This document shows, piece after piece, positions 1 to 60,856 of a stretch of DNA of 64,000 nucleotides. The DNA comes from an uncultured Gammaproteobacteria bacterium (lineage in GTDB: Bacteria > Patescibacteriota > Patescibacteriia > SG8-24). Below the pieces are notes generated by a model that saw nothing but the letters and a program-made list of their open reading frames with translations, was not told the origin of the DNA and did not search any database. Location of the stretch: NCBI GenBank assembly GCA_964491475.1, contig CAZBFO010000005.1, positions 841 to 64,840 of the forward strand. Reading direction: 5' to 3'. How positions within the stretch are numbered: position 1 is the first letter of the stretch; each line of letters opens with the position of its first letter. The position numbers and the translations under genes are program-made.

Positions 1-3000
1 AGCCGCCGGACACCGTGGAGTCGATGAAGATGCCCTGCGCCGCCGTGCCCGCACCTTGGCGGTCGAGCGAAAGCACCGCAGCGTTGGTGTCGGCAGTAAC
101 GCCGTCGTAAACGTGCGAGGCCTTGATGGTGCCGTGGCTGGTTTCGTGACCGGTGACCTCGAAAGCCGTGAAGGCGTTACTGGTGGACACGAAGTTGCCG
201 GCAGCGACGCTCGATGTCGAACCGCTGTAAGTCGCAGTGATGGTGTGGCCGGTGCCGTCGGCCGAAACCGAGATGCCGCCGCCGGTGCCGCCCGTAGCGT
301 TGATGTCGAGCGAGGTACCGGTGCCATCGTTGGAAATCGCCATCACGTTCTGGTCGTAGGAAGTGTTGTCTGCGCGCAGCGAAAGCAGGCGTGCACCCGA
401 AGTCGAAGCGCCGGCGTTCGAGTACACGACGATGCCGGAACCGAGGTTGCTGGTATTGTTGATCAACAGCGTTCCGCCGATCGAGGTCGAGGTCGAAGTG
501 TTGCCGGTCGGGGTCAGGCGCAAAGCCGCTCCAGTACCCGAGTTTGCGACATCGAGCGTCGTGCCGTTACCTGCATTGTTGATCTTGATGGCGCTCGACG
601 TGCCGTCGTTGTCGAGGCGCAGCACCGGACCGTCACCGGCGGAGTTGTCCTGCTTCATGAAGACGAGTCCGGCCGACGATTGGCCCGAACCGGCGTTCGT
701 GTAGAAGTTCACGCCGATGCCGAGGTTGTTGGTGTTGTCGACCAGAAGCGCGCCGCTCGAGGTGGCATTGCTGCCGGTGGCGCCGTTCTGCTGAATGTAG
801 ATGGCGTTACCGGTGCCGGCGTTGGTCACGGCGATTCCCCTGCCGTTGTTGGTGGTGTCGTTCTGCGTGAGCGTGATGCCGTTGCCGCCAAGGCCGTTGT
901 AGACGTTAAGCGTCTGCTTGCCGACCAGGCCGCTGCTGTACCGCGCGTTAATGAACGCGGTCGCGGTGCCGTTGTCAGTGATGTCCGTGGTGTTGCTGGA
1001 AATGGTCGCGCCCTCGACCGTCACGCGGGAAGCGCCAGAGTCGATCAAGAGACCGGTGGCGTTGCCCTCGATCCAGGAGTTCAACAGCGAGATGTTCTGC
1101 GAAGTGCCGTCGATGTGCACGCCGGTGATGCCCGTCGGCGAAGACGGCTCAAAGTCGGAACCGACCACCGTCAGGCCGCGAGTGTCGACGAGGTTAAGAC
1201 CCGTACCTGCGCCACCTGCCTTCGGGCGGCAGCGGACGTTGATCATGTGGTTGGCGTTGGCCTGGCTGCCGGAGTACTCGACGCAGCTGTTGTTGTCGAA
1301 CAGGCGGGCATCGGTGAGCGAGTTGTAATAAGTGGTGGCAGCGGTGTCCTGGTACAGTACGCCGAGGTTCCAATTTTCGATGCTGACCTTGCTCACCCAA
1401 GTGTAGGCGGCATTGGACATGTCGAACGCCGTACCGACGGCAGAACCGTTGGTGTTCAGCCAGCGTCCGCCGGTGATGGTCACCTGACCGATGCCCGAGG
1501 TCATCTGGATGAGCGGCGTGACGCTTGCGCCGTCGGCCTGAATGATGGCGCCGGCAGACATGAAGATCTGAATCTTCGAGTACGGGATGGTGATGGTGGA
1601 CGTTTCCGTGTAGGTGCCGTCCTTCACCCAGATGGAACAGCCGCTCGAAGGGCAAGCCGCGACCGCCGCTCCTAGCGTGGTGTAGTCGCCGCCGCTCGCG
1701 GCAACGACGTAAGTGTACGTCTTCGTTGCCGACCCGCCGGCACCGGCGATGGTTCCGGAACAGGACAGGTTGCCGTTGGTGCCATCAACGGTACAGCCGG
1801 TAGAACCGGAGCCGCCAGCGAGATTGACGCCGGCCGAACCGACCGCGCCGCCGACGTTCACCGTGGTGGCGTTGGTGTTGAAGACGCTGGCAGTACCAGT
1901 CGAACTGGTCGCAACGCTCGGGCTGGCGCCGTTCAAGTTGAGCGCCGTCGCATTAGTAAGAGTGACGGTCGGGTTGGCGACGGTAAACGTGCCGGTGGAA
2001 GCGCCAAGGTTGAGGCTGGTCGCCGCGCCGCCGACGTTGAGCGTGGTTGCCGCGGTGTTCACCAGGTCAAAGCTTGTCGAGCCGGTGGTGAGCGAGGTGG
2101 TGATGGCCGGGCTGGTGCCGAAGACGGCCGCGCCGGAGCCGGTCTCGTCGGTGAGCGTGGCGGAGAGGGCGGCGGAGTTCTGCGAAGCGGTCAGGTTCGA
2201 GGAGCCGTCGGTGGTCACGAAGCGGCTGGCGGTGATGCCCGAGAAGGTGATCGTGCCGGAGCTCGAGATGCCCGTAATGTTCGACAGCGCACCGCCGTTG
2301 GAGAGGCGCTGGGTGCCGCCGGTCTGCAAGTCACCGTTCGAGAGGTTGATGGTGCCGTTGGCCAGCGTCATCGTGCCCGTCGAGGCGCCGATGCTGACGG
2401 TGGTCGCCGCGCCGCCGATGTTGAGCGTCGTCGCGGTCGAATTGAACAGCGTAGCGCTCGTCTGGCTGGTGGTGAGGTCGCCGCCGTTCAGTGCCAAGTC
2501 GCTGGTCATGGTCACGTCGCCGGTGTCGGCGATGCGCATGCGCTCGGTGCGAGTGGTGGTGCCGTTTGTGGTGGTCTCGAAGGTGAGGTAGGTGCCGTTG
2601 GCACTGGTCGTGAAGTTTTCACCCGCCTTGAAGATGATCGCCGCATTGCTCAACGAGGTAAATGCGGACCCGTTGTAGCCCTTGGCATTAAAGGTGAAAA
2701 GCGTGTCGTTGGCGTTCACCGCGGTCGGCGAACCGACGCTGCCGCGAGCGCGGCGGGCAGTCAGGTTTGCGGCAACGGAATTGCCGTAAGCGTCAATCGT
2801 CTCCTGTACCGGATCAGTGCTGCCGACAATCTGGAAATTGGAGCTCGGAGAGGTGGTGCCGAGACCGAGGCGATTATTCGTGTCGTCCCAGTAGAAGTTG
2901 GCGTTGTCCTGGCCCAGGTTTCCGCTGGCGTCGGCGAACAGCACCGAACCCGCAGTCGCGGAAGTGATGGAATCTCCGATGGAAACTCCGCTGCCCGACG

Positions 3001-5995
3001 TAATGCAGTCCGTCCAGGCGCCGTTCTGGTAGCAGCGGAACTTATTGGAGGTGGTGTTGTAGTACACCAAGCCCGCCGAACCGGTCGGATCGGAAGAAAG
3101 GTTTGCGAACTGCAGCGGACCGCTCAACTGATTGTTCGAAGAGCTGGTGGAAACGATCGGGCCGGTGGCCGTGACGCCGCCGCCGAAGGTGACGGCTTGG
3201 CCGCTGGTCGCGTTGATGGCCAGCGCGCCGACCGATTCGATCTTGCCGTCGGAGTAATAAGTGGAACCGTTGCCGGCGACGACGCCGTCGATGAAGTAGC
3301 CGCGGCCGAAGCGGTTTGCCAGCGCCTGCGCGGTGTCGGTGCCGCCGACTTCCGGAACGTGAACTTCGGTCACCACGTCGGTGCTGGACCAGTCGAGCGC
3401 GGGGCTGATGGTCAGCGTGTCGCCGGTGACTGCCGTAATCTTGGCGTAGCAGGGATTGGAGACGCAGGTAGCCGAAGCCACTTTGGCGTAGTTGCCGACG
3501 TCGAAGTTCGCGCCGTCGCCGGTCTGCACGTCGAGGCTCGTGGAAGCGGTGCCGGAGTTCGCCGCAGTCGACGCGCCGTCAAGCGTCGTGAAGGCGGTGA
3601 TGGCGTCGCCGGTCGCGTTGACGTTGAAGTTGGAGCTGGTACCGACGGAGAAGAGGTTGGTCGGGGCGTTGTTGCCGATGCCGAGCCGGGCGCTTCCTGC
3701 GTTCCAGTAGAAGTTGGCGTTGTCTTGGCCAAGGTTGCCGGAACCGTCAGCGAACAGCACCGAACCGGCCGTGGCGCCGGTAATCGAGTTGCCGATGACC
3801 ATGCCGCTGCCGGTGAGCGTCGAGCAGTCGGTCCACGAGCCGCCCGCGTAGCAGCGGAAGGTGTCGGAGGTCGTGTTGTAGTACATCATGCCGTTCGTTC
3901 CGGCCGGATCTGCAGACGCCGTGCCGATGGTCAGCTTGGTGCCGGCACCGAAGACGAGATCGCCCGCCAAGTAGCTGCTGCGAGTGGACGCGCTGTAGAT
4001 TGCGCGATCGCCGGACGGGTTGGTGGTCGTGCCGATGAGCAAGTCGGTATTGTTGGTCGCTCCTGTCATCTCTTCGATGAGCACGCCCGCACGGTTCGTC
4101 ATGGTACCGACGGCAGAAATGGTGTTACCGGCAACGATGGCGCGGCTGCTGGTGATCGTTCCGGAGACATTGTTGGAAACGCCGGCATAGAAGGCAATCG
4201 CTTCACTGACCGTTCCGGTCGATGCGTTGCTTACCTCTCCATCGAGGCCTATCATGCGGTTCACGGTGCCGGTACCGTTGTGTTGAGCGTAGCTAAGGCT
4301 GCCGAGAATGGAGTTCGTCGCGGTGAAGTTCCTGCTGTTGCCCGACAGGGTTGCGATGTAGTTGTATCCGCCAAAGTACTGCGAAGAAGTATCAGCCGTA
4401 GGATCAAGCTCGAAGTTCTGGTACACGAGCGTCGCGCCAGTGGTGTCGGTGGTGCGGTGGGTGACGTTCAAAATCGACGTCGAGTCGTAGCCGGGCACCT
4501 GATTGCCGATCGTCGCGTAACCGCGAACGTCCAGAAGAGCGCTCGGAGTGCTCGTGCCGATGCCGACATCGCCCGCAAAGTAAGACTTCGCGCCGCCGCT
4601 GCTGTAAATGGAGTAGTTGTTAGCTCCGGTCGTGGTCTGATCGATGGCCAATCCCTTGTTGTTGGTTCCGGCGGACTGGTCGCTGACATGTACGCCCTCG
4701 ACGTCGGTGATGGTACCGCCACCGGTGTTGGTGATGGTGTCTGCCCAGATGCCGCGAGCGGTGCCGAGCGTGCTGGTGCCCTGGTTGCCGACGAACGTAT
4801 ACAGGCCGTAGGCGCTGTTCAGATTGCCGGTCGAGTTGAGAAACACCTCGCCGTCGAGAGCAGCGACCTTGGCGTTGGTGTATGACGTCGAGTTCTGGAC
4901 CGTGACGTAGCCGCTCACGGCAGCGTTCGTCGTGGTCGTGTTAGCCATGTTGTCTGCCTTGAGCCAGCCGAGAAGCGTGCCGTGATCTGCCGAAGCATTG
5001 GTCTCGGAGGCGAAGACGTTCGCGTCGTTGTAGCTGGCTGTGTTGTAGCCGCCGAGGTCGGTGAAGTTCGACGGGCCGGCCCAAACGTCGTAGTTGTACG
5101 TGCCGCCGGTCGCCTTGTTGATGCGAAGCGCGTAGTTCCTTGCGCCGGAACCGTTCCACGTGCCCGTAGAAGTCAGCTCGAGGCCCGCCTTGTTAACCGA
5201 TGCGGTGGACGAGGTGGTGGTGTTGGAGAGCAGCGTGCCGCTGAACGAGGCAGTTTTCGCGCCGGTGCTGCTGACCTCCAGCGTGGAAGTCGGCGTCGCC
5301 GTTCCGATACCGATCATGTTGGCAGCCGAATCCAGCACGAAGGTCGTCGTGTCGAACGTAACGTCCTTGGTGAGCGTGAAGTTGCCGGAAGCGTCGGTGA
5401 CCGGCACGAATGCATTGGAACCGCCGGCGTTCGAAGTCTCGAGGTCGTCGAGCTTGTCGGCGTTCATGGCATAACCGGCCGCCACGATGCGCTTGCGGGG
5501 TGTCATTTCTGCGTCGGTGTTGACGGTGACGCCCAGGTACATGACCGGATTGTTGAAAAGTGCGGCTGGCATCGCTGCGGGGCTGCCGGAAGTGCAAACG
5601 AGAGGGGTGGTAACGTCGCCCATCAAAACGGTGGTGGTGCCACCGACGAATGCCGCAGTCACTGCCGTGGGGGTGCTGGTGGGGTTGCCGTCGGTGGTGC
5701 ATGCAGAAAACAACTGCGTGCCACCGCTGGCCGAGTCGTAGACGGTCAGGTAGATGTCGTTGTTACCGTCAGCGACCGTGTTGCCAGCAAGATCGGTCAG
5801 TCGCATCTGGTAATTCAGAACGCGGTTCAGTTCCGGAGCCGAAGCGGCGAATGCCGTTGATACCGAGAACAGCGTCGCAAGGCCGGTAATGACCGTGATA
5901 ACGGCAAAAACAATCCGAGCAACATTGGCAAAAAATTGCTCAATGGAGCGGTTATTCTCGCGGCTCTTTCGGTCATGGTGCCTAATAGTAGCCAT
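1..5995 (-). CDS. Giant secreted/surface beta-helix (fibre-repeat) protein, 3'-partial (C-terminus lies beyond window start); paralogue of the 52985..60856 product
   Basis: Manual reverse-strand translation from ATG (complement of 5993-5995) gives MATIRHHDRKSRENNRSIEQFFANVARIVFAVITVITGLATLFSVSTAFAASAPELNRVLNYQMRLTDLAGNTVADGNNDIYLTVYDSASGGTQLFSACTT... This is clearly homologous to the N-terminus of the 2623-aa ORF (NRILNYQISLTD..., GGTQLFTAC, AEMTPRK, DDLDTSNAGGSNAFVPVTDASGNFTLTKDV). Frame continuity was checked at about 3060 (..VYYNTTSNKFRCYQNGAWTDC..) and about 915 (GNGITLTQND.. beta-helix-like repeats); all are in the same codon phase. No stop lies before the window edge, which explains its absence from the ORF track. 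The plus-strand ORFs 56..1675, 3197..4885 and 4982..5860 are codon-aligned antisense shadows. Confidence 0.6.
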   Translation of the reverse strand, partial: MATIRHHDRKSRENNRSIEQFFANVARIVFAVITVITGLATLFSVSTAFAASAPELNRVLNYQMRLTDLAGNTVADGNNDIYLTVYDSASGGTQLFSACTTDGNPTSTPTAVTAAFVGGTTTVLMGDVTTPLVCTSGSPAAMPAALFNNPVMYLGVTVNTDAEMTPRKRIVAAGYAMNADKLDDLETSNAGGSNAFVPVTDASGNFTLTKDVTFDTTTFVLDSAANMIGIGTATPTSTLEVSSTGAKTASFSGTLLSNTTTSSTASVNKAGLELTSTGTWNGSGARNYALRINKATGGTYNYDVWAGPSNFTDLGGYNTASYNDANVFASETNASADHGTLLGWLKADNMANTTTTNAAVSGYVTVQNSTSYTNAKVAALDGEVFLNSTGNLNSAYGLYTFVGNQGTSTLGTARGIWADTITNTGGGTITDVEGVHVSDQSAGTNNKGLAIDQTTTGANNYSIYSSGGAKSYFAGDVGIGTSTPSALLDVRGYATIGNQVPGYDSTSILNVTHRTTDTTGATLVYQNFELDPTADTSSQYFGGYNYIATLSGNSRNFTATNSILGSLSYAQHNGTGTVNRMIGLDGEVSNASTGTVSEAIAFYAGVSNNVSGTITSSRAIVAGNTISAVGTMTNRAGVLIEEMTGATNNTDLLIGTTTNPSGDRAIYSASTRSSYLAGDLVFGAGTKLTIGTASADPAGTNGMMYYNTTSDTFRCYAGGSWTDCSTLTGSGMVIGNSITGATAGSVLFADGSGNLGQDNANFYWNAGSARLGIGNNAPTNLFSVGTSSNFNVNATGDAITAFTTLDGASTAANSGTASTSLDVQTGDGANFDVGNYAKVASATCVSNPCYAKITAVTGDTLTISPALDWSSTDVVTEVHVPEVGGTDTAQALANRFGRGYFIDGVVAGNGSTYYSDGKIESVGALAINATSGQAVTFGGGVTATGPIVSTSSSNNQLSGPLQFANLSSDPTGSAGLVYYNTTSNKFRCYQNGAWTDCITSGSGVSIGDSITSATAGSVLFADASGNLGQDNANFYWDDTNNRLGLGTTSPSSNFQIVGSTDPVQETIDAYGNSVAANLTARRARGSVGSPTAVNANDTLFTFNAKGYNGSAFTSLSNAAIIFKAGENFTTSANGTYLTFETTTNGTTTRTERMRIADTGDVTMTSDLALNGGDLTTSQTSATLFNSTATTLNIGGAATTVSIGASTGTMTLANGTINLSNGDLQTGGTQRLSNGGALSNITGISSSGTITFSGITASRFVTTDGSSNLTASQNSAALSATLTDETGSGAAVFGTSPAITTSLTTGSTSFDLVNTAATTLNVGGAATSLNLGASTGTFTVANPTVTLTNATALNLNGASPSVATSSTGTASVFNTNATTVNVGGAVGSAGVNLAGGSGSTGCTVDGTNGNLSCSGTIAGAGGSATKTYTYVVAASGGDYTTLGAAVAACPSSGCSIWVKDGTYTETSTITIPYSKIQIFMSAGAIIQADGASVTPLIQMTSGIGQVTITGGRWLNTNGSAVGTAFDMSNAAYTWVSKVSIENWNLGVLYQDTAATTYYNSLTDARLFDNNSCVEYSGSQANANHMINVRCRPKAGGAGTGLNLVDTRGLTVVGSDFEPSSPTGITGVHIDGTSQNISLLNSWIEGNATGLLIDSGASRVTVEGATISSNTTDITDNGTATAFINARYSSGLVGKQTLNVYNGLGGNGITLTQNDTTNNGRGIAVTNAGTGNAIYIQQNGATGSNATSSGALLVDNTNNLGIGVNFYTNAGSGQSSAGLVFMKQDNSAGDGPVLRLDNDGTSSAIKINNAGNGTTLDVANSGTGAALRLTPTGNTSTSTSIGGTLLINNTSNLGSGIVVYSNAGASTSGARLLSLRADNTSYDQNVMAISNDGTGTSLDINATGGTGGGISVSADGTGHTITATYSGSTSSVAAGNFVSTSNAFTAFEVTGHETSHGTIKASHVYDGVTADTNAAVLSLDRQGAGTAAQGIFIDSTVSGG

Positions 5996-6172
5996 CTTTT
6001 TTGCGACAAATACCCGAGGCTCTAGAAAAATAGCTATAAATAGCCCTATTCTAGGCCTTGTACCATTTTACCATTTTTTGGCACGCTTCTCAACGGCAAT
6101 GAGCCACTTTTTGAGCTCATTTATGCTGCTGGGTTGAGCCAAATACTGGTACTGGTGTGGAAGATTTTTTAT

Positions 6173-6246
6173 TTGTCCACAAGCTCACTATCTTCTGGGA
6201 AGCATAAACCTACTGCTCCTGTGGATAGTTTAAGCCATGTGGACAT
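6173..6246. promoter_or_regulatory. DnaA-box-like motifs upstream of the partial giant gene (minus strand); shares TTTATTTGTCCACA(A)GC with the region upstream of its paralogue
   Basis: TTGTCCACA 6173-6181, TGTGGATAG 6220-6228, TGTGGACAT 6238-6246. Compare 6166-6186 (ttttttatttgtccacaagc) with 52850-52872 (cactttatttgtccacagcaag). Confidence 0.45.
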
Positions 6247-6256
6247 TTGTTCCCTC

Positions 6257-6299
6257 CACGCCTCGTTGCCAAAAAAACACGCTTTGGCAACGAGGCGTG
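6257..6299. terminator. Strong hairpin terminator between the two giant minus-strand genes
   Basis: cacgcctcgttgccaaa-aaaacacgc-tttggcaacgaggcgtg, 17-bp perfect stem. Confidence 0.65.
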
Positions 6300-6335
6300 T
6301 CCCCGATTTTCATCGGGAAACGCTTAATTCAGGCT

Positions 6336-29831: not shown

Positions 29832-29975
29832 AACAATATCGTTCTTAAATATATTTATATATTACTGTGGTGGTTGTAGGTGAGTGGATAGCGGGGAAAA
29901 GTCACCTACGATTGCTGGGTTGAGCCACCTGAACCTGTGGAAGCATGTGGGGTACCACGGGAGAACTGGTGGTAC
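29832..29975. promoter_or_regulatory. Candidate oriC part II: AT-rich unwinding stretch plus DnaA-box-like motifs in the dnaA-dnaN spacer
   Basis: caacaatatcgttcttaaatatatttatatattactgtgg (AT-rich 29832-29872) followed by gtggatagc, ctgtggaag and ttccacagg. Confidence 0.4.
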
Positions 29976-29979
29976 AACC

Positions 29980-30025: not shown

Positions 30026-30096
30026 TTCTGTCCACCGGACATCCTAGGTTTTTCCCACGGTTGGCCTCACAGCTTCCACAGGTTATGCGCCGCGGA

Positions 30097-31500: not shown

Positions 31501-31775
31501 AGTATTGATGCGTCGAAAGACAAAGGCGAAAATATTTTGAGGCTGAATACAGTCTAAGACAGCAAAACATATTTGAAAAGCGGCCGAACTGGGCACAGAT
31601 TGTGTACCAATTGTGGATATCTTTCGATTTAAAAGCAAGTGTGGATGCACTGTGGGTTAGTCAACCCCATATGATGTGTTATCAACAGGTTCTTAACACC
31701 ATATGTGGTGTGTCTTGCCAAAAATGGGCAATTCTGGCAGGATAGAGCGACTTCGAATCAGATAAGTGATTTGTT
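31501..31775. promoter_or_regulatory. Candidate oriC part I / dnaA promoter region with DnaA boxes
   Basis: TGTGGATAT (31612-31620), TGTGGATGC (31640-31648), TTATCAACA and TGTGGGTTA in the dnaA-rpmH intergenic region; AT-rich tttcgatttaaaagc. Confidence 0.5.
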
Positions 31776-31913
31776 ATGCCCAAGCGCACACTCCAGCGCA
31801 ACCCGCGCAAGATGAAGAAAAAGCACGGTTTTCTGAACCGCATGCGCACCACCGGTGGCCGCGTCGTTCTCAAGCGTCGCCGCGCCAAGGGTCGCAAGAA
31901 GCTCTCCGTATAA
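31776..31913 (+). CDS. rpmH: 50S ribosomal protein L34
   Basis: [45 protein letters not shown], found by manual translation (too short for the ORF track). Confidence 0.9.
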
Positions 31914-31915
31914 AC

Positions 31916-31957: not shown

Positions 31958-32323
31958 GTGCTACAGTGTTTTCATATGTTGGCAAAGTCAGCCCGACTCA
32001 ATGCGGAAAAGGATTACTCACGCCTTTTTTCTAAAGGACGTGCTTTTCATGCGCGCGGCATCATCATGAAGGTCATGAAGAGCAAGGCCGAAGCTACCAA
32101 AGTCGGATTTGTAGTCAGTACGAAGGTGGCAAAGAAGGCCAACGTGCGCAACTTGGTCAAACGGCGCATGCGCGAAATCATCCGAAAGCATTACGCCCAG
32201 ATCGAAAGGGGCCTCGACATAGCCTTCAAGGCAAAAGTCGAGGCAAAATCAATGGAATTTGCGGAGGTGGAAAAGTCGATGCTTGAGCTTCTTTGGAAAG
32301 CAGGCATTTTGCCACGAACATGA
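31958..32323 (+). CDS. rnpA: RNase P protein component
   Basis: Position after rpmH, basic about 115-aa protein (..GFVVSTKVAKKANVRNLVKRRMREI..). The start may be the internal M at 31976. Confidence 0.7.
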   Translation: MLQCFHMLAKSARLNAEKDYSRLFSKGRAFHARGIIMKVMKSKAEATKVGFVVSTKVAKKANVRNLVKRRMREIIRKHYAQIERGLDIAFKAKVEAKSMEFAEVEKSMLELLWKAGILPRT

Positions 32324-48164: not shown

Positions 48165-48173
48165 CGTGCTTCG

Positions 48174-51651: not shown

Positions 51652-51837
51652 ATTCGGTGCCTCCGGCGATTGCCGTGGCTGTTCGCGAGCATCCTAGCCG
51701 AAGCCGGGACGTCGTATGAGTTACCTGCCGATACTAGCAGCAGGCTTTGGCTTTGTAAAGGGGTATTTTGAGCCAAAAAGAAAAGGGATTGCGCTGGGCA
51801 ATCCCCCGAGAAAGGGCCTTTTTTCGGCCCGCTCTCT

Positions 51838-52626
51838 TTACGAGGCGTAGCCGCCGACGGCTTCGGAGACCATTCGAGGTCCGGAGAGGGGCGCGGACCC
51901 CTCGTCAACCGTCCCCGAGGGGACGATTTCGTCAGAGCGAGGCGGTGATTCCGACTCGAGCTCCGTCAAAAGGTCCTCCGAGGCAAGCTCGGTCTTGAGG
52001 GCGCCTCCGAACCCGAACTTTCTGGCCTCCTCCGCGCCACCGAAGAATCGCTCGATTGCGGCTTGGTCACGCGCGGTCATGACGGGTTGCATGGTCGGTA
52101 TCCGCGCCTCCTCGTCCTCGTAGATGTCGCACTCCTCGACCTCCATCGGTTCGTCGCCGTCGTCGAGGAACTGATCCACGGGGATTGCCCCCGTGAACTG
52201 GACACACCCCTTTGGCAGGCTCACGAACGGGTCGTTCACGAGCACGACAGCGGCGGTGACGTCGTTGCTGACGGGCGGGGCGGTGAGCGAGGGGGCCGGC
52301 GGAGCCGGCATCCGAATAACCGCGATGATGTTGTCGCACATCATCTTGAAGGCCCGGTTCCTCTCCCCGGAACCTGCGGTCTCGGGGGGAGGATTCAGGC
52401 AGATCCTGCGAGCCTCGGCGAGGTGCCCGGTGATGAGCAGCTGCCGAAGCTCGGCAGCAGTCGAACCGATGGCGTTCGGACGGAGACCGAACGCCCGAAG
52501 GATGTTCCAAATCTCCTTGATGTCCGTCGCGACGTTCCGTGCGCGGGCCTGCTCCTTGGTCTTAGCCAGGATTTGGCTGGCAAGAGAAAGGAGATTATAG
52601 ACCCCATTGGTCGACGATTGATGCAT
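51838..52626 (-). CDS. Hypothetical protein (262 aa), acidic C-terminal half
   Basis: Long ORF with plausible composition; no recognised family. Confidence 0.35.
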   Translation of the reverse strand: MHQSSTNGVYNLLSLASQILAKTKEQARARNVATDIKEIWNILRAFGLRPNAIGSTAAELRQLLITGHLAEARRICLNPPPETAGSGERNRAFKMMCDNIIAVIRMPAPPAPSLTAPPVSNDVTAAVVLVNDPFVSLPKGCVQFTGAIPVDQFLDDGDEPMEVEECDIYEDEEARIPTMQPVMTARDQAAIERFFGGAEEARKFGFGGALKTELASEDLLTELESESPPRSDEIVPSGTVDEGSAPLSGPRMVSEAVGGYAS

Positions 52627-52741
52627 TTTGAACCTCTGTGGTTGGTGTTATGGAACAGAATGTCTTTCAACCCAGCAGGGTCGAAAGAACCGATAATTAT
52701 TAGCAGAAACAAGCCATTTTGTCAACGGTGGAAGGTGTACA

Positions 52742-52868
52742 TGTGGATAGAATTTATATTGTGGATAATTCTGTGCACAAAAAGTATGCATAGTGGAAAA
52801 CTTATCCACCTTCTTTGATCAAATAGACGCAAGAACTATGTTGAAGTGAACACTTTATTTGTCCACAG
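52742..52868. promoter_or_regulatory. DnaA-box cluster in AT-rich region upstream of the 2623-aa giant gene
   Basis: TGTGGATAG 52742-52750, TGTGGATAA 52760-52768 (perfect), TTATCCACC 52802-52810, TTGTCCACA 52860-52868. It also contains GTGTACATGTG, which is shared with 16081-16091. Confidence 0.5.
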
Positions 52869-52984
52869 CAAGACTTTTCATATTTTTATCTAATTTTAGC
52901 CAAAAAAAAGACCATTTACCCTTGAAAAAAGTCGATTTTTTTGATATACTACTGTTGATTAGTAATTCAAATCAGTAAAAGCCT

Positions 52985-55900
52985 GTGTCCAAGATTTCCA
53001 AGGTCACGTTGCTCCAAAAAGCAACGGGAACGAGGAATGGACGTCAGGGTCTTTTCGGTTTCGCTTGGAGTTCTTTGCTGCTTGCAAGCCTCATTTCTGG
53101 ACTTTTTGCCAAATCCGTTGCCGCATCAGGCCCTTCAGCTAATCGCATCCTCAACTATCAAATCAGCCTGACGGACACTGCGAACTTTCCGGTGGCCGAT
53201 GGGGACAAGAGCATTTACCTGACGATTTACGACGCCAGCACGGGCGGTACCCAGCTGTTTACGGCTTGTTCCGTCGGTGCCAGTCCGACCGCCACGCCCG
53301 AGGCCATAACCGCCACATTCGTCGGAGGAAAAACGACCATTTTGATCGGCGATACGGCCACCTTGGTCTGCGCCGCAGGATCGCCTGTGCCGATTCCGGA
53401 TGACTTATTCAATAATACGTCGTTGTGGCTCGGCGTCACTGCCGAGTCCGACGCCGAAATGACCCCTCGCAAGCACCTCGTTTCGACGGGTTATTCGATG
53501 AACGCCGACAGGCTCGATGACCTCGATACCTCAAATGCCGGCGGGTCGAACGCTTTTGTGCCCGTGACCGACGCTTCGGGAAACTTCACGCTCACCAAGG
53601 ACGTGGACTTTGCCAGCGGGACGTTCGTGGTGGATTCAACGGGCTCCAACGTCGGAATCGGGACTGCCAGCCCTTCCGCACTCCTGTCCGTCGGCACGGG
53701 TTCGGCATTCCAGGTGGACGGCGCAGGCAACGTCAGCCTGAACGGCGGAGGGACGCTGATGCTCGGTTCGCAGACCTCTGACCCCACCGGCGCGAACGGC
53801 ATGACGTACTACAACAGCACTTCGGACGTTTTCCGCTGCTTTAGGAACAGCGCGTGGGGGGATTGCGACTCTTCGCGGCTTGATCAGCTTTCGGGCGCAA
53901 CTTCCGCGCACGGTCTTGACAGCGGTGACTTCGCGCAAACTTGGACATGGTCGCTCACGAGCGCGAACAACGCGGGCTTGACGCTCGGCGAAAGCAGCCC
54001 ATCGACGGCATCGGGCGCTCCTTCTGTCCTGACCGTCTCGACGCAATCCGGTTCGACGGCCTCGCCCGTTTACATCAAGAATCTCGGTGACGGTCCGAGT
54101 TTCCGCGTTGATGATGAAGGCGCAGACGCTACGCCCTTCTACATCAGCGCTGACGGCAACGTCGCGGTGGGCGCAGAGTCATTCGATATCGTCAATCCTG
54201 AAAAATTCAAGGTAGAAGGCGGCACCAACGGCACCATCAACATCATCAGCGGCTATGGCGACCGCGACGGCTATCTGCAGCTCAACATCCACAACCGCAA
54301 TGCTGGCGAGAATGCCTCGTCCGATTTGGTCGCCACTGCCGACGATGGCAACGAGAACGTGAATTACATCGACGTGGGCATCGACTCGTCGGGATACAAC
54401 AACGCCGACTACACCATAGTCGGGCCGCATGACGGTTACATGTACACGAACGGCGGCAACCTCGCCATCGGCACGCAAACGGCAGGAATGTCGATTAAAT
54501 TCCACACCGGAGACACGCTGGTCGGAAACGAGCGCATGCGGATCGACGGTGACGGCAACGTGGGCATCGGCACCACCTCCCCGGGTTCGAAACTCGACGT
54601 GAAGGGAGAGTTCCGACTTTCCGGCGCAACTTCCGGCTACGTCGGATTCGCGGCCGCTTCGGCGGCTGGTTCGACTACTTATACGTTGCCCAGCGCCGAC
54701 GGGAGCGCGGGATACGCGCTGATCACTAACGGATTAGGCACCCTTTCTTGGGCCGACGCCGCCACCAAATGGAACAGGACCGGAACGACGCTATCGCCGG
54801 TCAATGTCGGCGACGACATCACCACTTCTGGCAACATTTATACTACCGGTGGAGGCACCATTACTTCTGATGGCCTGTTCAGCGGCGCACTCGGTTTGGC
54901 CGTGGTCGGTGGCACCGTGAACGTCAACGCCAGCAGCAACTTCGACACCAACATTAATACCGGCAGCTCCACTGGCTCGGTGAACATCGGCAACGTCTCG
55001 TCAGGTGCCGTGACCATCACCTCCGGCGCGGGCATCACGCTGGCCGCAGGTGCCGCTTCGAACATTTCCAGCACCGCCGGCGATATCGTCTTCCAGCCCG
55101 CTGGCACGTCCACGAGCGCGGCAGTGCAGATCGGCGTCGGGGGTGCCGGTTCGACTACTCCCGACGTGCTCGCGCTCGACGTGAAATCCGATGCCGGCGA
55201 TCCTGCGGGCATGAATGGCGCGATGTATTACAACGACAGTGCGGCGAAGTTCCGCTGCTACGTCAACGGTTCGTGGTCCGATTGCGATACGACCGGCGGA
55301 ACGACGACGCTTCAGACCGCGTACAACGGCGGCGCCGCCATCACCACCAGCGGCTCCACGGACATCGCCTTCACGCTGACCTCGGGCAACTTCACGGCCG
55401 GCGGCGCGGGCGCCGTCAGTCTCACCCCGACCTCCGCCTCAAGCTTCACTTCCGGCGGCGCCCTCACGCTGACCGGCGGCGCGGCCTCGACCTGGGGCAC
55501 CTCGAGCGGAAACCTGACTCTCCAAGCTGCCGGTGCAGGTACGACAGCCGCAGTGCAAATCGGTGCGGGCGGATCGGGATCGACGACTCCAGACCTTTTC
55601 GGTGTTGACGTTAAGTCCACCTCGGGAGACCCGTCCGGCTTCAACGGAGCCATGTACTACAATGCCAATGCCAACGATTTTCGCTGCTATGTGAATGGCG
55701 GCTGGCAGAGCTGCGGTGCGACTGCTGCTTCGGCCACCACGTTGCAGCAGGCATACAACAGCGCCGCCGCCATCACCACCAGCGGCTCCACGGACATCGC
55801 CTTCACGCTGACCTCGGGCAACTTCACGGCAAGCGGGGCCGGCGCCGTCAGTCTCACCCCGACCTCCGCCTCCAGCTTCACCTCGGGCGGCGCGCTCACG

Positions 55901-58900
55901 TTCACCGGCGGCGCCTCCAGCACCTGGTCCACCTCCTCCGGCGCGCTGACCGTGGACTCCGCCGCCGCGCTCAACCTCGGCACCTCGAACGCCACCTCGG
56001 TGTCGCTGGGCAGGACCGGCGTGACCACCACCAACAACGGCGCGCTCACCTCAACGCAGACGCTGACTGCATCGAACGGCCTTACGCTCACGACTGGCGC
56101 GCTGAACCTCACGGCCACCAGCGGCACGCTCGCGATTTCGGGCCTCGGCGCGAGTTCCGTCAGCACCGGCTCCAACAGCCTTTCGCTCGTCGGCAGTCCC
56201 GTGAACGTCAACGCGTCCGGTTCCGGAACCGTCAATCTCGGAAGCGCGACCGCGGCGGTGAACCTTCCGGGCCTCACGGCCTCAAAGGTGGTCTTCACCG
56301 ACTCGTCCAAGAACCTGACCTCGTCTGGCACGGTCGGCATTGCGCAAGGCGGCACCGGACAGACCACCCAAACCGCCGGCTTCAATGCTTTGTCACCGCT
56401 GACGACGAAGGGCGACATCGTCGCATTCGACGGAACGGACAACGTGCGCATGCCCGTCGGCGGAACCAACGGCTTCGTACTGACGGTCGATTCGACGCAG
56501 GCAAACGGCATCAAGTGGTCCGCGCTGCCCAGTACCAGCCTGCAGAGCGCCTATAATGGCGGTGCCACCATCACCACCTCGGGGGCCACCAACATCGCCT
56601 TCACGCTGACCTCGGGCAACTTCACGGCAAGCGGGGCCGGCGCAGTCAATCTCACCCCGACCTCCGCCTCCAGCTTCACCTCGGGCGGCGCCCTCACGCT
56701 GACCGGCGGCGCCTCCAGCACCTGGTCCACCTCCTCCGGCGCGCTGACCGTGGACTCCGCCGCCGCGCTCAACCTCGGCACCTCGAACGCCACCTCGGTG
56801 TCGCTGGGCAGGACCGGCGTGACCACCACCAACAACGGCGGGTTGACCGTCACGCAGGCCACCACATTAAATGGGGGGCTGGCGGTGAACACCAGCGGGA
56901 GCGTTACCACCGATCAGGCCTCGTTTGATCTCATTAACGCCACGGCCACAACGCTTAACTTCGGCGGCGCGGCCACAGGCCTGACCATCGGCGCGACTAC
57001 GGGCACCGCGACCATCAGAAACGCCACGGTTACCCTCTCTAATGCCACGACCCTCAACATGAACGGGGCGAGCCCGAGCATCGTGACGTCGAGCAGCGGC
57101 ACCGCCAGCGTCTTCAACACCAACGCCGCCGTGCTCAACATGGGCGGTGCCGCCACCTCCGTGAGCATCGGCGCCTCGACCGGCACCATGACGCTGGCCA
57201 ACGGCACGATCAACCTTTCGAATGGCGTCCTCCAGACCGGCGGCACTCAGCGCCTCTCCAACGCCGGCGCGCTGTCGAACATCACCGGCATCAGCTCCTC
57301 CGGCACCATCACTTTCTCCGGCCTGACCGCCAGCCGCTTCGTGACCACCAACGGCTCCTCTGACCTGGCCACCTCGCAGAACTCCGCCGCGCTGTCCGCC
57401 ACCCTCACCGACGAGACCGGCTCCGGGGTCGCCGTCTTCGGCACCAGCCCGGCAATCACCACCTCGCTCACCACCGGCTCCGCCAGCTTCGACCTGCTGA
57501 ATACGACTGCGACTACGGTCAACTTTGCCGGTGCGGCGACCACCCTGAACGTCGGTATCGCCGGCGCCTCGGGCACGCTCGCGCTCATGGGCGGCAGCGG
57601 CAGCACCGGCTGCACCGTGGACGGCTCCACGGGCAACCTGACCTGTTCGGGCAATGTCGCCACTACCGCCACTTCCGGTACGCAAGGCTGGTGGAGCCGC
57701 TCCGGCACGACGATTCAGTCAGTCACCTCCGGAGACTCCCTCACCGTTTCCGGCTCCGGTGCATTCACGACCGGCACCGGTACCACCACCGTTAACGGCA
57801 CTTCAGTCGTCCTTGCCGGCAACTCCACGGTCATCGACATGACCGGAACGGGAACGCTTAGCCTCAACACGACGACGAACCGCGCCATCAGCACGGGCTC
57901 CGGATTGTTCACCGCGGGCGGCGCGCTCACCGCCACGGGACTCGTCACCGCAAACGGCGGCGTGACTCTCGCGGCAAACCAGAATTTCACGATGACTTCG
58001 GGTGCAGGTACTTCCACCCAGACTTTCACCGGCAGCTCGACCACCGCTGACACCATCGCCGCAGGTTCGCTGACTTCCGGCACCGCACTTGCGCTCACCG
58101 GCGGCTCGGCGATGACCACCGGCTCGCTGCTTACCGCCACCTCCGCCACTTACGTGCACACGGCTGCGGAAACGGGAAAAGTCATGAGCATCTCGTTAAC
58201 GGACGCCTCGACCAACTCCACCGGCGTGGCGTCCGTGACCACGGGATTGGATCTCGCCACGGCTTTCAACACTTCTGCCAGCGTCGGCTCGAAAACGATC
58301 AATGCCATGAACATTCCGGCGCTCTCCACCACCACCTGCGGCACCACCGGCGGCACCTGCGTGTGGAACGGCGTCCAGATGGCGACCCCCACGCTCTCGC
58401 AGACCACCACCAACGCCTATACCTTCAACGGCCTGAACCTGTCTTCGGCCGGCGCGCTGACGCAAAGCAGCACTGCGGGAACGATCAACTGGAACGGCGC
58501 GGCCATCGTCATGCCGAATATCACGCAGACGACGGGCACGATCACCTCTAACGGGCTGACGGTCACGATGGGAACGAGCACGACCGGAGGCACGCAGAAC
58601 GGCCTGCTCATCAAGGATTCCAGCAGCATCGCGACTGCCGCGCACGACTCGGCCATTCTCGTACAAGACAGCAGCGGCAACTCGCTGTTCGACGTAAGGG
58701 AGATGACCAGCGCCAACAACAACTTCGGCGCGACTGCCACGACGGGGGCGTTCATCGATCGCAACTCGACCTACCGCGAAGAGTTCAACAGTTTCCACGG
58801 GACGAATACGACGGCGACGACGGCGCAGATTCGCGGCGACGGCGGCGGCGCCGGCAGCGGCGAACTTAGCTTGAGCGTCGTTACCGTCGGTGCCGGCGGT

Positions 58901-60856
58901 TCCGGCACGGCGGCATCGCAAAACACCACGAACGGAGTGGAACGGCTCACTCCGGTTTCTGGCAACGCAAACGGAAGAACCGCGGCTATCCTCGAATACC
59001 TCGGTACCGCCACTACGGGAACCGCAAACAACATCTATGCGGCCGCGAACCTCCCCGTCGTTACCGTAAAGGCGAAGGTGGACGTGGCTGGCGCGAACAA
59101 CCGCGTGTTCATCGGCATCAGCGACGCGGCAGCGGCGGTCACGACCATGCCCACCAACGGCATCTTCTTCTCCAACTGCACCGCTTCTGCCACCTGCGAC
59201 GCGAACTGGCACGGTGTCGTCAACAATGCGGGCGCGGTCACCACCGTATCTTGCGGCGCAGTCGACACGTCGCACTTCGCCTACGGTCGAATCGAGGTGC
59301 GCTCCACGACCGACGTCCACTTCTTCATGGACACCAACGTTTCAGACGGCATCGTCGAAACGGAATGCGGAACCGGCCTCGTCGCGACTCCCAGCGCGGT
59401 CATGACGACATTGATTCAGGCTGCTTCGTTGAGTACGGCTGCCGCGACTAACACCACGAACCTCGACGTCGATTACGTTCGGACTTGGCAGGACGACGCT
59501 TCTTCGGAAGGCGCGGTCGCTTCGATAACTCCTGCCGCCCCCGCACCCCTGACCGACGACGACCTCCTGGGGGCGCTGGTCTCCCAGGCAAGCCTCCGCC
59601 CCGTCGATCAGACACCGGCAGACACTGCCGTCGATCGCTTGGTGGCAGGATTATCGGTGATTTCGCCAAAAGGCACTTTTGAAGGACTGTTCGCCAAGAC
59701 CGTGGAAGCGGACATCCTCGCGCTGAAAGACGTGGCCACCGCGGTGTCACGGTCCATCTCTTACGACGGTTCGGTCGGTCTGACCGGCGACATGATGCGC
59801 ACCGACGCATCTGGCTGGGCCGCGTCCACGCACGGCTTCGCGGACATGTTCGCCTCGAACGATTCGCTCTCGGAAGGCGACATCGTGATGGTCGACGCCG
59901 CCAATGCGACCAAGGTAGTTCGCGCCGTCAAGGACGACGCCCATCCGGACTTCCTGCTTGCCGGCATCGTGGCGTCTCGCCCGGGATACATCGCCGGAAT
60001 GAACGAGGCTGACAGCTATCCGGTCGCAGTCCAAGGCCGCGCCACCGTGAAGGTGAAGGGGCCGATCGCCATCGGCGATCCGATTACGGTCTCCGACACG
60101 CCCGGCGTCGGCTCCGTCGCGACCGACCCCACTTACATCATCGGCATCGCGCTACAGGCCAAAATCGGCGACGACAGCGGCCTTGTGACCGTATTCGTCC
60201 GCCCCGGCTGGTTCAACGGCAGCACCGTGCAGCCGCAGAACACTGCGGTATCCGGCATCAATCCAGGCGCACTCGTCATGGATGACAGTATCGCGGATTT
60301 CGCCTCTCGCGCGCTGACCGGAGTCGGCGCCATCCAAGGCATCGACAGCCTTTGGAACATCGACGGCAACGGCAAACTGACCATCAAGGAAATCAGCGCA
60401 GAGAACGTTTCTGTCACGCAGACCGACACTTCGTCTACCATGGAAACGGGCGTGATGCTTTCAGGCGAAGTCGTGACCCAGGTGCACAACGCTTCCGTGA
60501 AGCCGACGTCTCGCGTCTTCGTCACCTTCCGCAAGGATCCCGGCAGCAGCTGGTGGGTCGAGGACATCGGAGAAGGGTTCTTCACGCTCAAGGTGCGTCA
60601 GCCCGTGGTGGAGGACGTGCCCTTCGATTATTGGGTGGTCGGCGTGAATGACTTGCGAACCAGCCCGAAGGCGCCGGTATCAGCGCCTGGTGCTCCTGCG
60701 GAGCCGACCGTGCCGGTGCAAGCAGTCGAATCGCCGACAGTTACGCTGCCGAACGCGCCTCAAACCGATAGTGCGCCTGCGCCCGATGCCGTCTCCGATG
60801 GTACTGATACAGGTTCCTCGACCGGCGAAACCGCTGCCTCAACGACGAACCCGTAG
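52985..60856 (+). CDS. Giant (2623 aa) secreted/surface beta-helix fibre-repeat protein. It has an N-terminal signal/TM, repeated G(M/A)MYYNxxxxxFRCYxNGxWxDC and IGIGTTSPxSKLDVKG motifs, and long near-identical internal repeats. A conserved C-terminal domain (GDIVMVDA...PGYIAGM...PVAVQGRATVKVKGPIAIGDPITVSD.PGVG..ATDPTYIIGIALQA...GLVTVFVRPGW) recalls tail-fibre/appendage-like surface proteins
   Basis: Single uninterrupted ORF with a GTG start at 52985. The repeat structure is visible at both protein and DNA level. The minus-strand shadow ORFs 53491..53802 and 55687..56514 mirror shadows of the 1..5995 paralogue. Confidence 0.8.
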   Translation: MSKISKVTLLQKATGTRNGRQGLFGFAWSSLLLASLISGLFAKSVAASGPSANRILNYQISLTDTANFPVADGDKSIYLTIYDASTGGTQLFTACSVGASPTATPEAITATFVGGKTTILIGDTATLVCAAGSPVPIPDDLFNNTSLWLGVTAESDAEMTPRKHLVSTGYSMNADRLDDLDTSNAGGSNAFVPVTDASGNFTLTKDVDFASGTFVVDSTGSNVGIGTASPSALLSVGTGSAFQVDGAGNVSLNGGGTLMLGSQTSDPTGANGMTYYNSTSDVFRCFRNSAWGDCDSSRLDQLSGATSAHGLDSGDFAQTWTWSLTSANNAGLTLGESSPSTASGAPSVLTVSTQSGSTASPVYIKNLGDGPSFRVDDEGADATPFYISADGNVAVGAESFDIVNPEKFKVEGGTNGTINIISGYGDRDGYLQLNIHNRNAGENASSDLVATADDGNENVNYIDVGIDSSGYNNADYTIVGPHDGYMYTNGGNLAIGTQTAGMSIKFHTGDTLVGNERMRIDGDGNVGIGTTSPGSKLDVKGEFRLSGATSGYVGFAAASAAGSTTYTLPSADGSAGYALITNGLGTLSWADAATKWNRTGTTLSPVNVGDDITTSGNIYTTGGGTITSDGLFSGALGLAVVGGTVNVNASSNFDTNINTGSSTGSVNIGNVSSGAVTITSGAGITLAAGAASNISSTAGDIVFQPAGTSTSAAVQIGVGGAGSTTPDVLALDVKSDAGDPAGMNGAMYYNDSAAKFRCYVNGSWSDCDTTGGTTTLQTAYNGGAAITTSGSTDIAFTLTSGNFTAGGAGAVSLTPTSASSFTSGGALTLTGGAASTWGTSSGNLTLQAAGAGTTAAVQIGAGGSGSTTPDLFGVDVKSTSGDPSGFNGAMYYNANANDFRCYVNGGWQSCGATAASATTLQQAYNSAAAITTSGSTDIAFTLTSGNFTASGAGAVSLTPTSASSFTSGGALTFTGGASSTWSTSSGALTVDSAAALNLGTSNATSVSLGRTGVTTTNNGALTSTQTLTASNGLTLTTGALNLTATSGTLAISGLGASSVSTGSNSLSLVGSPVNVNASGSGTVNLGSATAAVNLPGLTASKVVFTDSSKNLTSSGTVGIAQGGTGQTTQTAGFNALSPLTTKGDIVAFDGTDNVRMPVGGTNGFVLTVDSTQANGIKWSALPSTSLQSAYNGGATITTSGATNIAFTLTSGNFTASGAGAVNLTPTSASSFTSGGALTLTGGASSTWSTSSGALTVDSAAALNLGTSNATSVSLGRTGVTTTNNGGLTVTQATTLNGGLAVNTSGSVTTDQASFDLINATATTLNFGGAATGLTIGATTGTATIRNATVTLSNATTLNMNGASPSIVTSSSGTASVFNTNAAVLNMGGAATSVSIGASTGTMTLANGTINLSNGVLQTGGTQRLSNAGALSNITGISSSGTITFSGLTASRFVTTNGSSDLATSQNSAALSATLTDETGSGVAVFGTSPAITTSLTTGSASFDLLNTTATTVNFAGAATTLNVGIAGASGTLALMGGSGSTGCTVDGSTGNLTCSGNVATTATSGTQGWWSRSGTTIQSVTSGDSLTVSGSGAFTTGTGTTTVNGTSVVLAGNSTVIDMTGTGTLSLNTTTNRAISTGSGLFTAGGALTATGLVTANGGVTLAANQNFTMTSGAGTSTQTFTGSSTTADTIAAGSLTSGTALALTGGSAMTTGSLLTATSATYVHTAAETGKVMSISLTDASTNSTGVASVTTGLDLATAFNTSASVGSKTINAMNIPALSTTTCGTTGGTCVWNGVQMATPTLSQTTTNAYTFNGLNLSSAGALTQSSTAGTINWNGAAIVMPNITQTTGTITSNGLTVTMGTSTTGGTQNGLLIKDSSSIATAAHDSAILVQDSSGNSLFDVREMTSANNNFGATATTGAFIDRNSTYREEFNSFHGTNTTATTAQIRGDGGGAGSGELSLSVVTVGAGGSGTAASQNTTNGVERLTPVSGNANGRTAAILEYLGTATTGTANNIYAAANLPVVTVKAKVDVAGANNRVFIGISDAAAAVTTMPTNGIFFSNCTASATCDANWHGVVNNAGAVTTVSCGAVDTSHFAYGRIEVRSTTDVHFFMDTNVSDGIVETECGTGLVATPSAVMTTLIQAASLSTAAATNTTNLDVDYVRTWQDDASSEGAVASITPAAPAPLTDDDLLGALVSQASLRPVDQTPADTAVDRLVAGLSVISPKGTFEGLFAKTVEADILALKDVATAVSRSISYDGSVGLTGDMMRTDASGWAASTHGFADMFASNDSLSEGDIVMVDAANATKVVRAVKDDAHPDFLLAGIVASRPGYIAGMNEADSYPVAVQGRATVKVKGPIAIGDPITVSDTPGVGSVATDPTYIIGIALQAKIGDDSGLVTVFVRPGWFNGSTVQPQNTAVSGINPGALVMDDSIADFASRALTGVGAIQGIDSLWNIDGNGKLTIKEISAENVSVTQTDTSSTMETGVMLSGEVVTQVHNASVKPTSRVFVTFRKDPGSSWWVEDIGEGFFTLKVRQPVVEDVPFDYWVVGVNDLRTSPKAPVSAPGAPAEPTVPVQAVESPTVTLPNAPQTDSAPAPDAVSDGTDTGSSTGETAASTTNP
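55796..56042 (+). repeat. Intragenic direct repeat copy 2 (247 bp)
   Basis: About 98% identical (5 mismatches) to 56594..56840. Its first about 90 bp are also shared with 55365..55455. Confidence 0.8.
56594..56840 (+). repeat. Intragenic direct repeat copy 3 (247 bp)
   Basis: Near-identical to 55796..56042 (differences cgtcagtctc/agtcaatctc and gcgctcacgttcacc/gccctcacgctgacc). Confidence 0.8.

Follow-up and report, generated by a model that had tools for sequence, protein, structure and literature searches.

Two giant tail-fibre-like genes on either side of a Patescibacteria replication origin: a conserved surface-cluster gene and a likely accessory paralogue

Origin-symmetric inversions ('X-alignments') reportedly arise, in the accounts that Eisen et al. 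and Tillier & Collins gave in 2000, between inverted repeats such as rrn operons and insertion sequence (IS) elements; invertible segments of tail-fibre genes, for their part, are known from phages Mu (Gin) and P1 (Cin). In Salmonella enterica the tufA and tufB genes, 1185 nt long with 12 differing positions (PMC5485169), are homogenised by gene conversion (concerted evolution), and the chromosome that lies between them can also be inverted by recombination (PMC6735719; PMC5485169). A comparable geometry is present in the stretch of DNA considered here, 64 kb of contig CAZBFO010000005.1 (the window), which is part of a Patescibacteria/Candidate Phyla Radiation (CPR) chromosome running across the replication origin: two giant genes for tail-fibre-like proteins, A on the minus strand and B on the plus strand, face away from each other on either side of dnaA/dnaN. 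An earlier note on this DNA had taken them for clear paralogues and for substrates of origin-symmetric inversion. We consider it likely that A is the ancestral gene of a surface cluster and B an accessory paralogue in a variable slot, their mirror placement being incidental, and that inversion between them is improbable today.

The arrangement itself stands as the note had it. Both giant frames are real, a stop-free minus-strand frame of 1998 codons and a plus-strand open reading frame (ORF) of 2623 amino acids (aa); they diverge, and both are co-directional with replication. The midpoint of the two starts, which the note had put at ~29.5 kb, computes to 29,490 and that of the shared blocks to 29,780, both beside the dnaA-dnaN spacer; measured from the centre of that spacer (29,964), the starts lie 23,969 and 23,021 bp away and the shared blocks 27,739 and 27,370 bp. 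As with X-alignments, homologous sequences are inverted on the two replichores at equal distance from an origin that lies between them at ~30 kb, and as with tufA/tufB the paralogues are inverted on opposite sides of oriC. Long near-identical tracts, of hundreds of bp at ~95% or more, were however not found.

By BLASTP, A48-241 aligns with B44-236 at 63% (63-64%) amino acid identity and A1174-1427 with B1367-1569 at 61%, with a 51-aa gap and a core at 81-87%. The aligned residues, in these two modules, amount to 448 of the 1998 of A (22%); the remainder shows likeness in nothing but composition (~50% T, G, A and S) and a handful of short recurring motifs, G[IV]G[TA]xxP, YYN..FRC[YF] and WxDC. 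As far as these alignments go, A and B are modular, not full-length, paralogues: the N-terminal domain and the mid-gene module are homologous, and the note's wording is right for those parts only. At the DNA level the mid-gene modules form the best inverted pair (I1; 443 nt at 84%, or 85.4% over 418 bp by blastn), with a second pair of 321 nt at 71% at 5298-5618/53347-53667; over about 490 bp of the N-terminal domain A and B are ~70% identical, with a synonymous divergence (dS) of 1.4, which is saturated, against 0.43 for the mid-gene block, and the longest exact match between the genes is 26 nt. Origin-symmetric inversion is unlikely today because this DNA similarity is too low for efficient homologous recombination. 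The claim of an inversion substrate falls here, low nucleotide identity without recombinogenic tracts being what the note itself had said would count against it.

The parallels with the described systems are limited in the same way. The repeats behind X-alignments are near-identical and kilobases long, whereas A/B identity is far lower, and the closest relative of the window is colinear with it, unbroken, across the origin. B is accessory, unlike the tuf genes, which are core duplicates; beyond the 443 bp at 84% and ~490 bp at 70% A and B are unrelated, and they show no conversion younger than dS ~0.4. Even the 84% of the mid-gene block, which we examined as proof of recent gene conversion, is weakened as such by the module being widespread (at least 252 metagenome matches) and 72-80% identical in nucleotide sequence between contigs of unrelated genomes; constraint and GC-rich codon bias would explain much of it.

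A working recombination device would nonetheless have an attractive logic. Crossover in the shared mid module or the N-terminal domain would invert the ~55-kb oriC segment and swap the distal fibre halves while the replichores stayed balanced, making the pair a slow, homologous-recombination analogue of the tail-fibre invertible segments. The arms are inverted and equidistant from the origin, the shared block lies mid-gene so that crossover would yield in-frame chimeras, the distal parts are unrelated, and equivalent paralogues in relatives have recombined recently (see below). We hold this to be very unlikely all the same, given 26 bp as the longest identical run where tuf offers 1185 nt with 12 differences, and given that two relatives have kept the same configuration despite tracts of 94-96%. 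Alternative or chimeric junctions were not seen: the only contigs of the same species that were found are two short ones, from Logan (run SRR12313480), independent of the source assembly and 100% identical to and colinear with window positions 47,600-52,585 and 59,544-64,000, and in a metagenome scan for same-species variants relatives reached at most ~80% aa identity. With the Mu Gin and P1 Cin systems the principle of distal fibre exchange by inversion would be the same, but A and B are chromosomal, encode 2000-2600+ aa including a signal anchor and have neither invertase nor inverted crossover sites, their arms are ~55 kb apart, and the recombinase gene beside B encodes a conserved Xer enzyme.

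A broader version has it that an origin-straddling recombination system, by gene conversion with occasional inversion of the oriC segment, reassorts anchoring and variable host-binding modules, and that the population from which the window comes may contain the two orientations side by side, together with chimeric fibres. This we think unlikely. If it were true, the mirror-symmetric placement of B would make inversion neutral for replichore balance; symmetry is not expected to promote the exchange itself, because in Salmonella recombination rates show no correlation with the distance between cassettes or from the origin (PMC8262849), and would only make inversion harmless for that balance.

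What singles B out is its location, in DNA that the relatives examined do not have. The closest relative, the metagenome-assembled genome (MAG) nzgw371 (GCA_023246195.1; DnaA 93% and PNPase 90% identical), is colinear with the window at ~78% nucleotide identity (blastn) from 28.2 kb to 51,772 and again from 60,913; in place of B and the divergent hyp262 it has 0.86 kb with an unrelated 172-aa ORF, which we considered as a remnant of B and rejected, there being no similarity. The slot is empty in CAZVED, where Xer and rpsO are 212 bp apart, and it holds three unrelated genes in JBAZZB010000002.1 and five in the complete genome CP129476.1. The rpsO-Xer spacer is a hypervariable slot whose cargo in relatives numbers 0, 1, 3 or 5 unrelated genes. 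Slot coordinates are 51652-60943 in the window, 7724-8582 in L149, 8742-8953 in L153, 4222-8870 in L155 and 5930-8822 in L156.

The fibre family to which A and B belong, defined by the N-terminal domain (alignment A1), has 10 protein-database matches and 65 loci in GTDB species representatives, often with two or three copies per genome; most of the loci are from MAGs labelled Patescibacteria/CPR or plain 'bacterium', some carrying other labels that are probably erroneous. Both window genes have the family layout of a signal/anchor helix followed by a ~190-aa domain with NRxLNYQ...DAEMTPRK...DDLxTS motifs. When all window proteins were compared by tblastn with the 65 loci, the neighbours of B were absent from every one, and hyp262 has neither a family match nor a homologue in the relatives' loci. 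These comparisons indicate that B is an accessory family member within a lineage-specific insertion. As cargo of an integrase/tRNA island it was rejected: the adjacent recombinase, which matches NCBIfam XerC/XerD at ~241 bits, is of Xer type, lies beside rpsO-NYN-pnp in all relatives examined and is in place where B is absent, and the junctions of the 9.1-kb segment carry no direct repeats of 8 nt or more.

A, by contrast with B, is the last gene after hyp284-hyp346-WxLIP-1892aa, an order that the same tblastn comparison found intact through the giant gene in L001, L003, L004, L006, L008 and L009 and partial or rearranged in others, including L010, L013, L016, L024, L027, L030 and L039. Judged from this gene order, A closes a five-gene surface cluster that is ancestral and kept across Patescibacteria. 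Its distance to dnaA appears conserved as well, at roughly 21-25 kb. In CAZVED010000004.1 (DnaA 72% identical) dnaA (40.1-41.7 kb) is followed by dnaN, PBP1A, ROK, polA, holA and rmuC, with the start of the A-type giant gene at 62.7 kb; in CP129476.1 the A-type gene starts at 791.5 kb on the minus strand, with the end of polA at 801.5 kb and comM/pnp/Xer at 822-840 kb, the 19.4 kb between 801.5 and 820.9 kb fitting the dnaA-bearing interval from polA to the H+-PPase gene of the window, with dnaA placed by inference; JBAZZB010000002.1 is the mirror image, with pnp at 274 kb, polA at 305 kb and the giant gene at 314.9 kb on the plus strand. The order giant-rmuC-holA-polA ... comM-pnp-Xer is kept in both of the latter.

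On the reading that we prefer, A would be the last gene of a surface-appendage cluster (pilin-like, hypothetical, WxLIP-like, FN3-rich membrane-anchored 1892-aa and giant tail-fibre-like proteins), and B, together with hyp262, a 9.1-kb lineage-specific insertion into the hypervariable slot between rpsO and a housekeeping Xer gene. The two would share the signal-anchor layout, the ~190-aa immunoglobulin (Ig)-like N-terminal domain and a ~150-aa mid-fibre module, with distal parts that are unrelated and presumably target-binding. Their divergent orientation would put each on the leading strand of its replichore, where very long transcription units are expected; that their distances from oriC mirror each other almost exactly would be incidental to the position of the variable slot, and the mid-gene module may be an old trace of intragenomic gene conversion.

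Could the symmetry be instead the footprint of how B arose? An inverted duplication of A coupled to sister forks equidistant from oriC, with later divergence and replacement of the distal part of B, would account for the tight mirror distance, and the weak sisterhood of A and B in the N-terminal tree and the 14-mer and DnaA-box-like clusters upstream of both genes could be read in its favour. But N-terminal dS is saturated, B stands at a similar distance from A (64%) and from members of the family in other genera (56-64%), only 22% of A aligns to B, and the upstream 14-mer is direct, not inverted; B moreover has an unrelated ORF beside it, in a slot that holds other unrelated cargo in relatives, as a general insertion hot spot would, and the Salmonella rates cited above are uncorrelated with cassette spacing or origin distance (PMC8262849). 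We judge such a duplication improbable.

The relatives show what recombination within the family can do. In CP129476.1 the two paralogues (L014/L016) are 94% identical over 729 bp (dS 0.11) and share an internal 1167-bp block at 92%; in JBAZZB010000002.1 (L013/L025) it is 671 bp at 96% (dS 0.16), whereas orthologues between the two genomes stand at dS ~1.1, a contrast that recalls tufA/tufB. In both pairs homogenisation begins precisely where the mature protein does, the signal peptides being unrelated; the CAYOXM copies (L003/L011/L012) are 84-88% identical over about 230-250 bp. At the level of these alignments, independent concerted evolution by gene conversion between inverted paralogues across the origin region is unambiguous in the two relatives. 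Within the window the candidate signals are the dS contrast between mid-gene block and N-terminal domain and the weak sisterhood, the block being itself a conserved module. The second family members, of 2318 and 2082 aa, are found at 944.6 kb (+) of CP129476.1 and at 160.3 kb (-) of JBAZZB (pnp being at 831-833 and 274-276 kb respectively), on the side opposite the A-type gene and pointing away from dnaA, ~130 kb from its inferred position against ~20 kb for the A-type gene. CP129476.1 and JBAZZB have the same configuration, with orthologous 5' and 3' parts, and no inversion is documented. Because the slot of B is hypervariable, B is absent in relatives and the second copies are ~130 kb away, the mirror symmetry of A and B is no conserved architecture. 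Long transcription units prefer the leading strand, a preference that the co-directional placements fit.

Several observations weigh against our preferred reading. Neighbour joining on the N-terminal domain places A and B as weak sisters, A is 64% identical to B against 57% for its positional orthologue in nzgw371, and dS of the mid-block is one third of that of the N-terminal domain; sisterhood and low mid-block dS would fit a past exchange between A and B, at which they hint. The mirror symmetry is tight (27.74 against 27.37 kb), and coincidence is unprovable from one observation; the A-type locus, B and the second-copy locus make only three independent placements, all co-directional with replication, which is not statistically strong. 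The absence of B from relatives could be loss rather than gain, and a second paralogue was not found on the relatives' contigs by a pattern-based scan. For CP129476.1 and JBAZZB the position of dnaA is deduced from synteny and the size of the gap, and the ordinary genes right of the origin show no strand bias. Finally, the link from 52,585 to 59,544 through B falls outside the independent short-read contigs.

This last point raises the matter of assembly: were the repeat-rich B mis-joined, its 5' part would not truly lie beside hyp262. The Logan contigs end at 52,585 (L152) and 59,544 (L158), leaving the promoter, 5' end and body of B bridged only in the source assembly, and giant genes break assemblies in relatives too. 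Yet B is an uninterrupted frame of 2623 codons with coherent codon usage, its last 1.3 kb are joined to xerC and hyp262 to rpsO in the independent contigs at 100% identity, and both flanks are colinear with relatives; an artefact is in our estimation hardly credible.

The position of the origin, on which the geometry depends, was assigned by the note to the dnaA-dnaN region, and we agree. The hallmark synteny rnpA-rpmH / dnaA-dnaN is present together with DnaA boxes and an AT-rich element, though the boxes of the dnaA-dnaN spacer are degenerate; that spacer is the best candidate for oriC and its DNA unwinding element (DUE). The note had proposed a check by GC skew. Raw skew was discarded as origin evidence, being uninformative because coding strands prefer C over G at third positions and the C-rich codons of the giant genes dominate the signal. 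We compared coding-strand GC skew at third codon positions (GC3 skew) of leading and lagging genes for each candidate origin position, using 30 ordinary genes and the Mann-Whitney test; the contrast peaks for an origin at 29.5-30.5 kb, with a difference of 0.14 (p=0.0014, uncorrected for positions scanned), a strand-compositional switch beside dnaA-dnaN. The AT-rich, DnaA-box-rich DNA at 15.9-16.7 kb was tried as an alternative origin and rejected, the contrast being nil at 16.3 kb (p ~0.57-0.6). The spacer there (15892-16737; 846 bp, non-coding, 37% GC, between hyp284 and tRNA-Arg) has an origin-like look, with two TTCCACGTGAAAC(A) palindromes and five TCCACA cores, all of them on the plus strand and three matching TTATCCACA perfectly.

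Upstream of both giant genes the note had seen a common promoter-proximal motif. The motif is there: the 14-mer TTTATTTGTCCACA has exactly two copies in the window, against 0.14 expected with up to two mismatches, at 6168-6181 and 52854-52867. Both are on the plus strand, so that it reads toward B and away from A, and the likely promoters lie downstream of it with different -10 elements. Within it lies TTGTCCACA, which differs from the canonical DnaA box TTATCCACA at one position, and it is probably a regulator-binding element, a putative DnaA box. As a promoter carried along by an inverted duplication it was rejected, since both loci have it on the same genomic strand and the motif class to which it belongs is over-represented in the intergenic DNA of the whole window. 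Motifs like the DnaA box (no more than one mismatch to TTATCCACA) number 32 in the window against 5.9 expected, and TATCCACA occurs 12 times in 9.3 kb of intergenic DNA against once in 54.7 kb of coding DNA. They cluster at 6156-6243, 14621-14660, 15947-16930, 31612-31687, 46711-46815 and 52742-52867; the cluster at 46.7 kb is kept at the syntenic site in four relatives (L149, L153, L155 and L156), and the TGGTAAAAT -10 with the inverted box pair upstream of A is kept in the positional orthologue L001 and in L005. The clusters away from dnaA may serve in DnaA titration or in regulation, as such clusters do in Bacillus.

Searches for function, by Pfam, NCBIfam, PHROGs and PDB sequence comparison, returned almost nothing for A and B, and Pfam and NCBIfam gave no match for either. 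PDB sequences similar to A are the triple-beta-helix chains of phage-type hyaluronidase (HylP type; 6wv2/4ufq/2wb3) at aa 1824-1995 and a 'cell wall surface anchor family protein' (8on4/8oml) at aa 1053-1163, giving a layout of signal/anchor, N-terminal Ig-like domain, fibre-like repeats and a C-terminal part resembling phage HylP triple-beta-helix; B has a weak PHROG tail-fibre match at aa 2320-2380. The HylP match of A, the weak match of B and the repetitive composition rich in Thr, Gly, Ala and Ser are the points of likeness to phage tail fibres and HylP tailspikes. An AlphaFold2 model of residues 1-252 of B has a membrane/signal helix at 23-41 and an Ig-like beta-sandwich at 55-155, with a predicted local distance difference test (pLDDT) score of 73-90 for residues 61-150; it gave no significant fold match in the PDB, the sandwich being a generic Ig-like one. 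Relative to the second of the three 300-nt direct repeats inside B, the third is 92% and the first 70% identical, which would make them a recent intragenic duplication or conversion of a ~100-aa unit.

Two surface systems come closest to the cluster of A. The CPR Pam pilus operon has a co-localised tail fibre-like protein and a proposed tip pilin, PamT (Troman et al. 2026 preprint, doi 10.64898/2026.03.03.709456), and its homologues are found mainly in Saccharimonadia and Microgenomatia (doi 10.64898/2026.03.03.709456). The window cluster resembles it as a CPR-specific surface-appendage cluster with signal-peptide Ig-like-fold proteins, membrane-anchored accessory proteins, an FN3 anchor-like protein and a fibre-like protein; but hyp284 scores only 33.9 bits with the NCBIfam PamT model, for a cut-off of 240, no other cluster protein matches the NCBIfam Pam models, and there are no ATP-synthase genes near the cluster. 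The five-gene cluster may be a distant relative of the Pam system. With the Csc/WxL systems of Firmicutes it has in common a WxLIP_PGBD (DUF916-type) protein encoded beside large surface proteins; the WxLIP match is however of 32 bits, and no WxL-domain or LPXTG proteins were detected in the window.

Table 1. Coordinates of the features discussed, in window positions.
Feature	Position	Strand	Remarks
Giant gene A	<1..5995	-	5' 1998 codons; stop-free frame running off the left window end
A, mid-gene module shared with B	2004..2446	-	Arm of inverted repeat I1
A, conserved N-terminal domain	5273..5854	-	aa 48-241; family alignment A1
Upstream region of A	5996..6335		Terminator of the 1892-aa gene; DnaA-box-like cluster, TCCACA cores at 6156, 6176, 6220, 6238
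Likely extended -10 of A, TGGTAAAAT	6065-6073	-	
1892-aa FN3/CarboxypepD_reg protein	6336-12014	-	C-terminal membrane segments; Pfam/NCBIfam
WxLIP_PGBD protein	12127-13185	-	352 aa
hyp346	13235-14275	-	Hypothetical
hyp284	15037-15891	-	Weak PamT-like match
dnaN	28674..29831	-	Pfam DNA_pol3_beta domains 1-3
dnaA-dnaN spacer	29832..30096		AT-rich run beside dnaN, several degenerate DnaA boxes; kept in closest relative
dnaA	30097..31503	-	468 aa, true start MNTHELW...; Pfam and translation; 93% identical to P0011
rpmH-dnaA spacer	31504..31776		DnaA boxes ATATCCACA and TTATCAACA; kept in MAG nzgw371
rpmH	31777..31914	+	
rnpA	31958..32323	+	
PNPase gene (pnp)	48174-50381		
Lineage-specific segment hyp262 + B	51773..60912		9.1 kb in divergent spacer between rpsO and Xer gene
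hyp262	51838..52626	-	262 aa, divergent from B
Upstream region of B	52627..52984		34% GC; DnaA-box-like elements at 52742, 52760, 52802, 52859
Likely extended -10 of B, TGATATACT	52942-52950		
Giant gene B	52985..60856	+	2623-aa ORF
B, conserved N-terminal domain	53114..53692	+	aa 44-236
B, three 300-nt direct repeats	55304..56833	+	Starts at 55304, 55736, 56534
B, mid-gene module shared with A	57113..57555	+	Other arm of I1
Xer-type tyrosine recombinase gene	60953..61900	+	Pfam; NCBIfam XerC/XerD

The gene content of the window (Table 1) was established from ORFs with high GC3 and from Pfam; its coding DNA is 55-64% GC, and the nearest public proteins come from MAGs labelled Parcubacteria, Uhrbacteria or Patescibacteria group. 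The minus-strand genes on the left, those for giant A, the 1892-aa protein, the WxLIP_PGBD protein and two hypotheticals, are followed by the 846-bp AT-rich spacer and two tRNAs, and then, toward dnaN, by rmuC, a site-2 protease gene, holA, a DUF155 gene, polA, tRNA-Cys, and the ROK kinase and PBP1A genes. Right of rnpA come nfo, tig, the H+-PPase gene, an HD-domain gene, an M23/LysM peptidase gene, comM, lexA, dinB, lspA/dksA-like genes, a 462-aa hypothetical gene, pnp, an NYN-domain gene and rpsO, and at the right end hyp262, giant B, the Xer-type recombinase gene and two tRNAs. A provisional plus-strand 'hyp272' (45322-46140) is probably lspA and a dksA/TraR-like gene on the minus strand. 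The SOS regulator and Pol IV genes lexA and dinB (42836-45217) are missing at the colinear site in nzgw371, where only an 88-aa ORF lies between comM and lspA.

The window also carries GC-rich perfect inverted repeats at 24400-24601 and 35114-35295, with arms of 49 and 48 nt that are 100% complementary and loops of ~100 nt, in unusually GC-rich spacers; a further inverted pair, 97 nt at 85%, flanks polA (21374-21470 / 24453-24549). The 35.15-36.26 kb spacer that holds one of the GC-rich repeats is missing in nzgw371. Rfam gave no match for the GC-rich inverted repeats in the window, which may be MITE-like (miniature inverted-repeat transposable element) elements or structured RNAs.

A switch by origin-symmetric inversion is unsupported by the sequence, and what the window exhibits is mainly familiar: paralogy by modules, long genes that run with replication, and hot spots of insertion. 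Of greatest interest, as a by-product, is the evidence at the level of the family for gene conversion across the origin region. Patescibacteria depend on attachment to host cells, for whose recognition giant tail-fibre-like proteins are prime candidates; a cluster-embedded, ancestral A and an accessory B in a hypervariable slot would, together with gene conversion in the family, give a picture of how an adhesin repertoire evolves.

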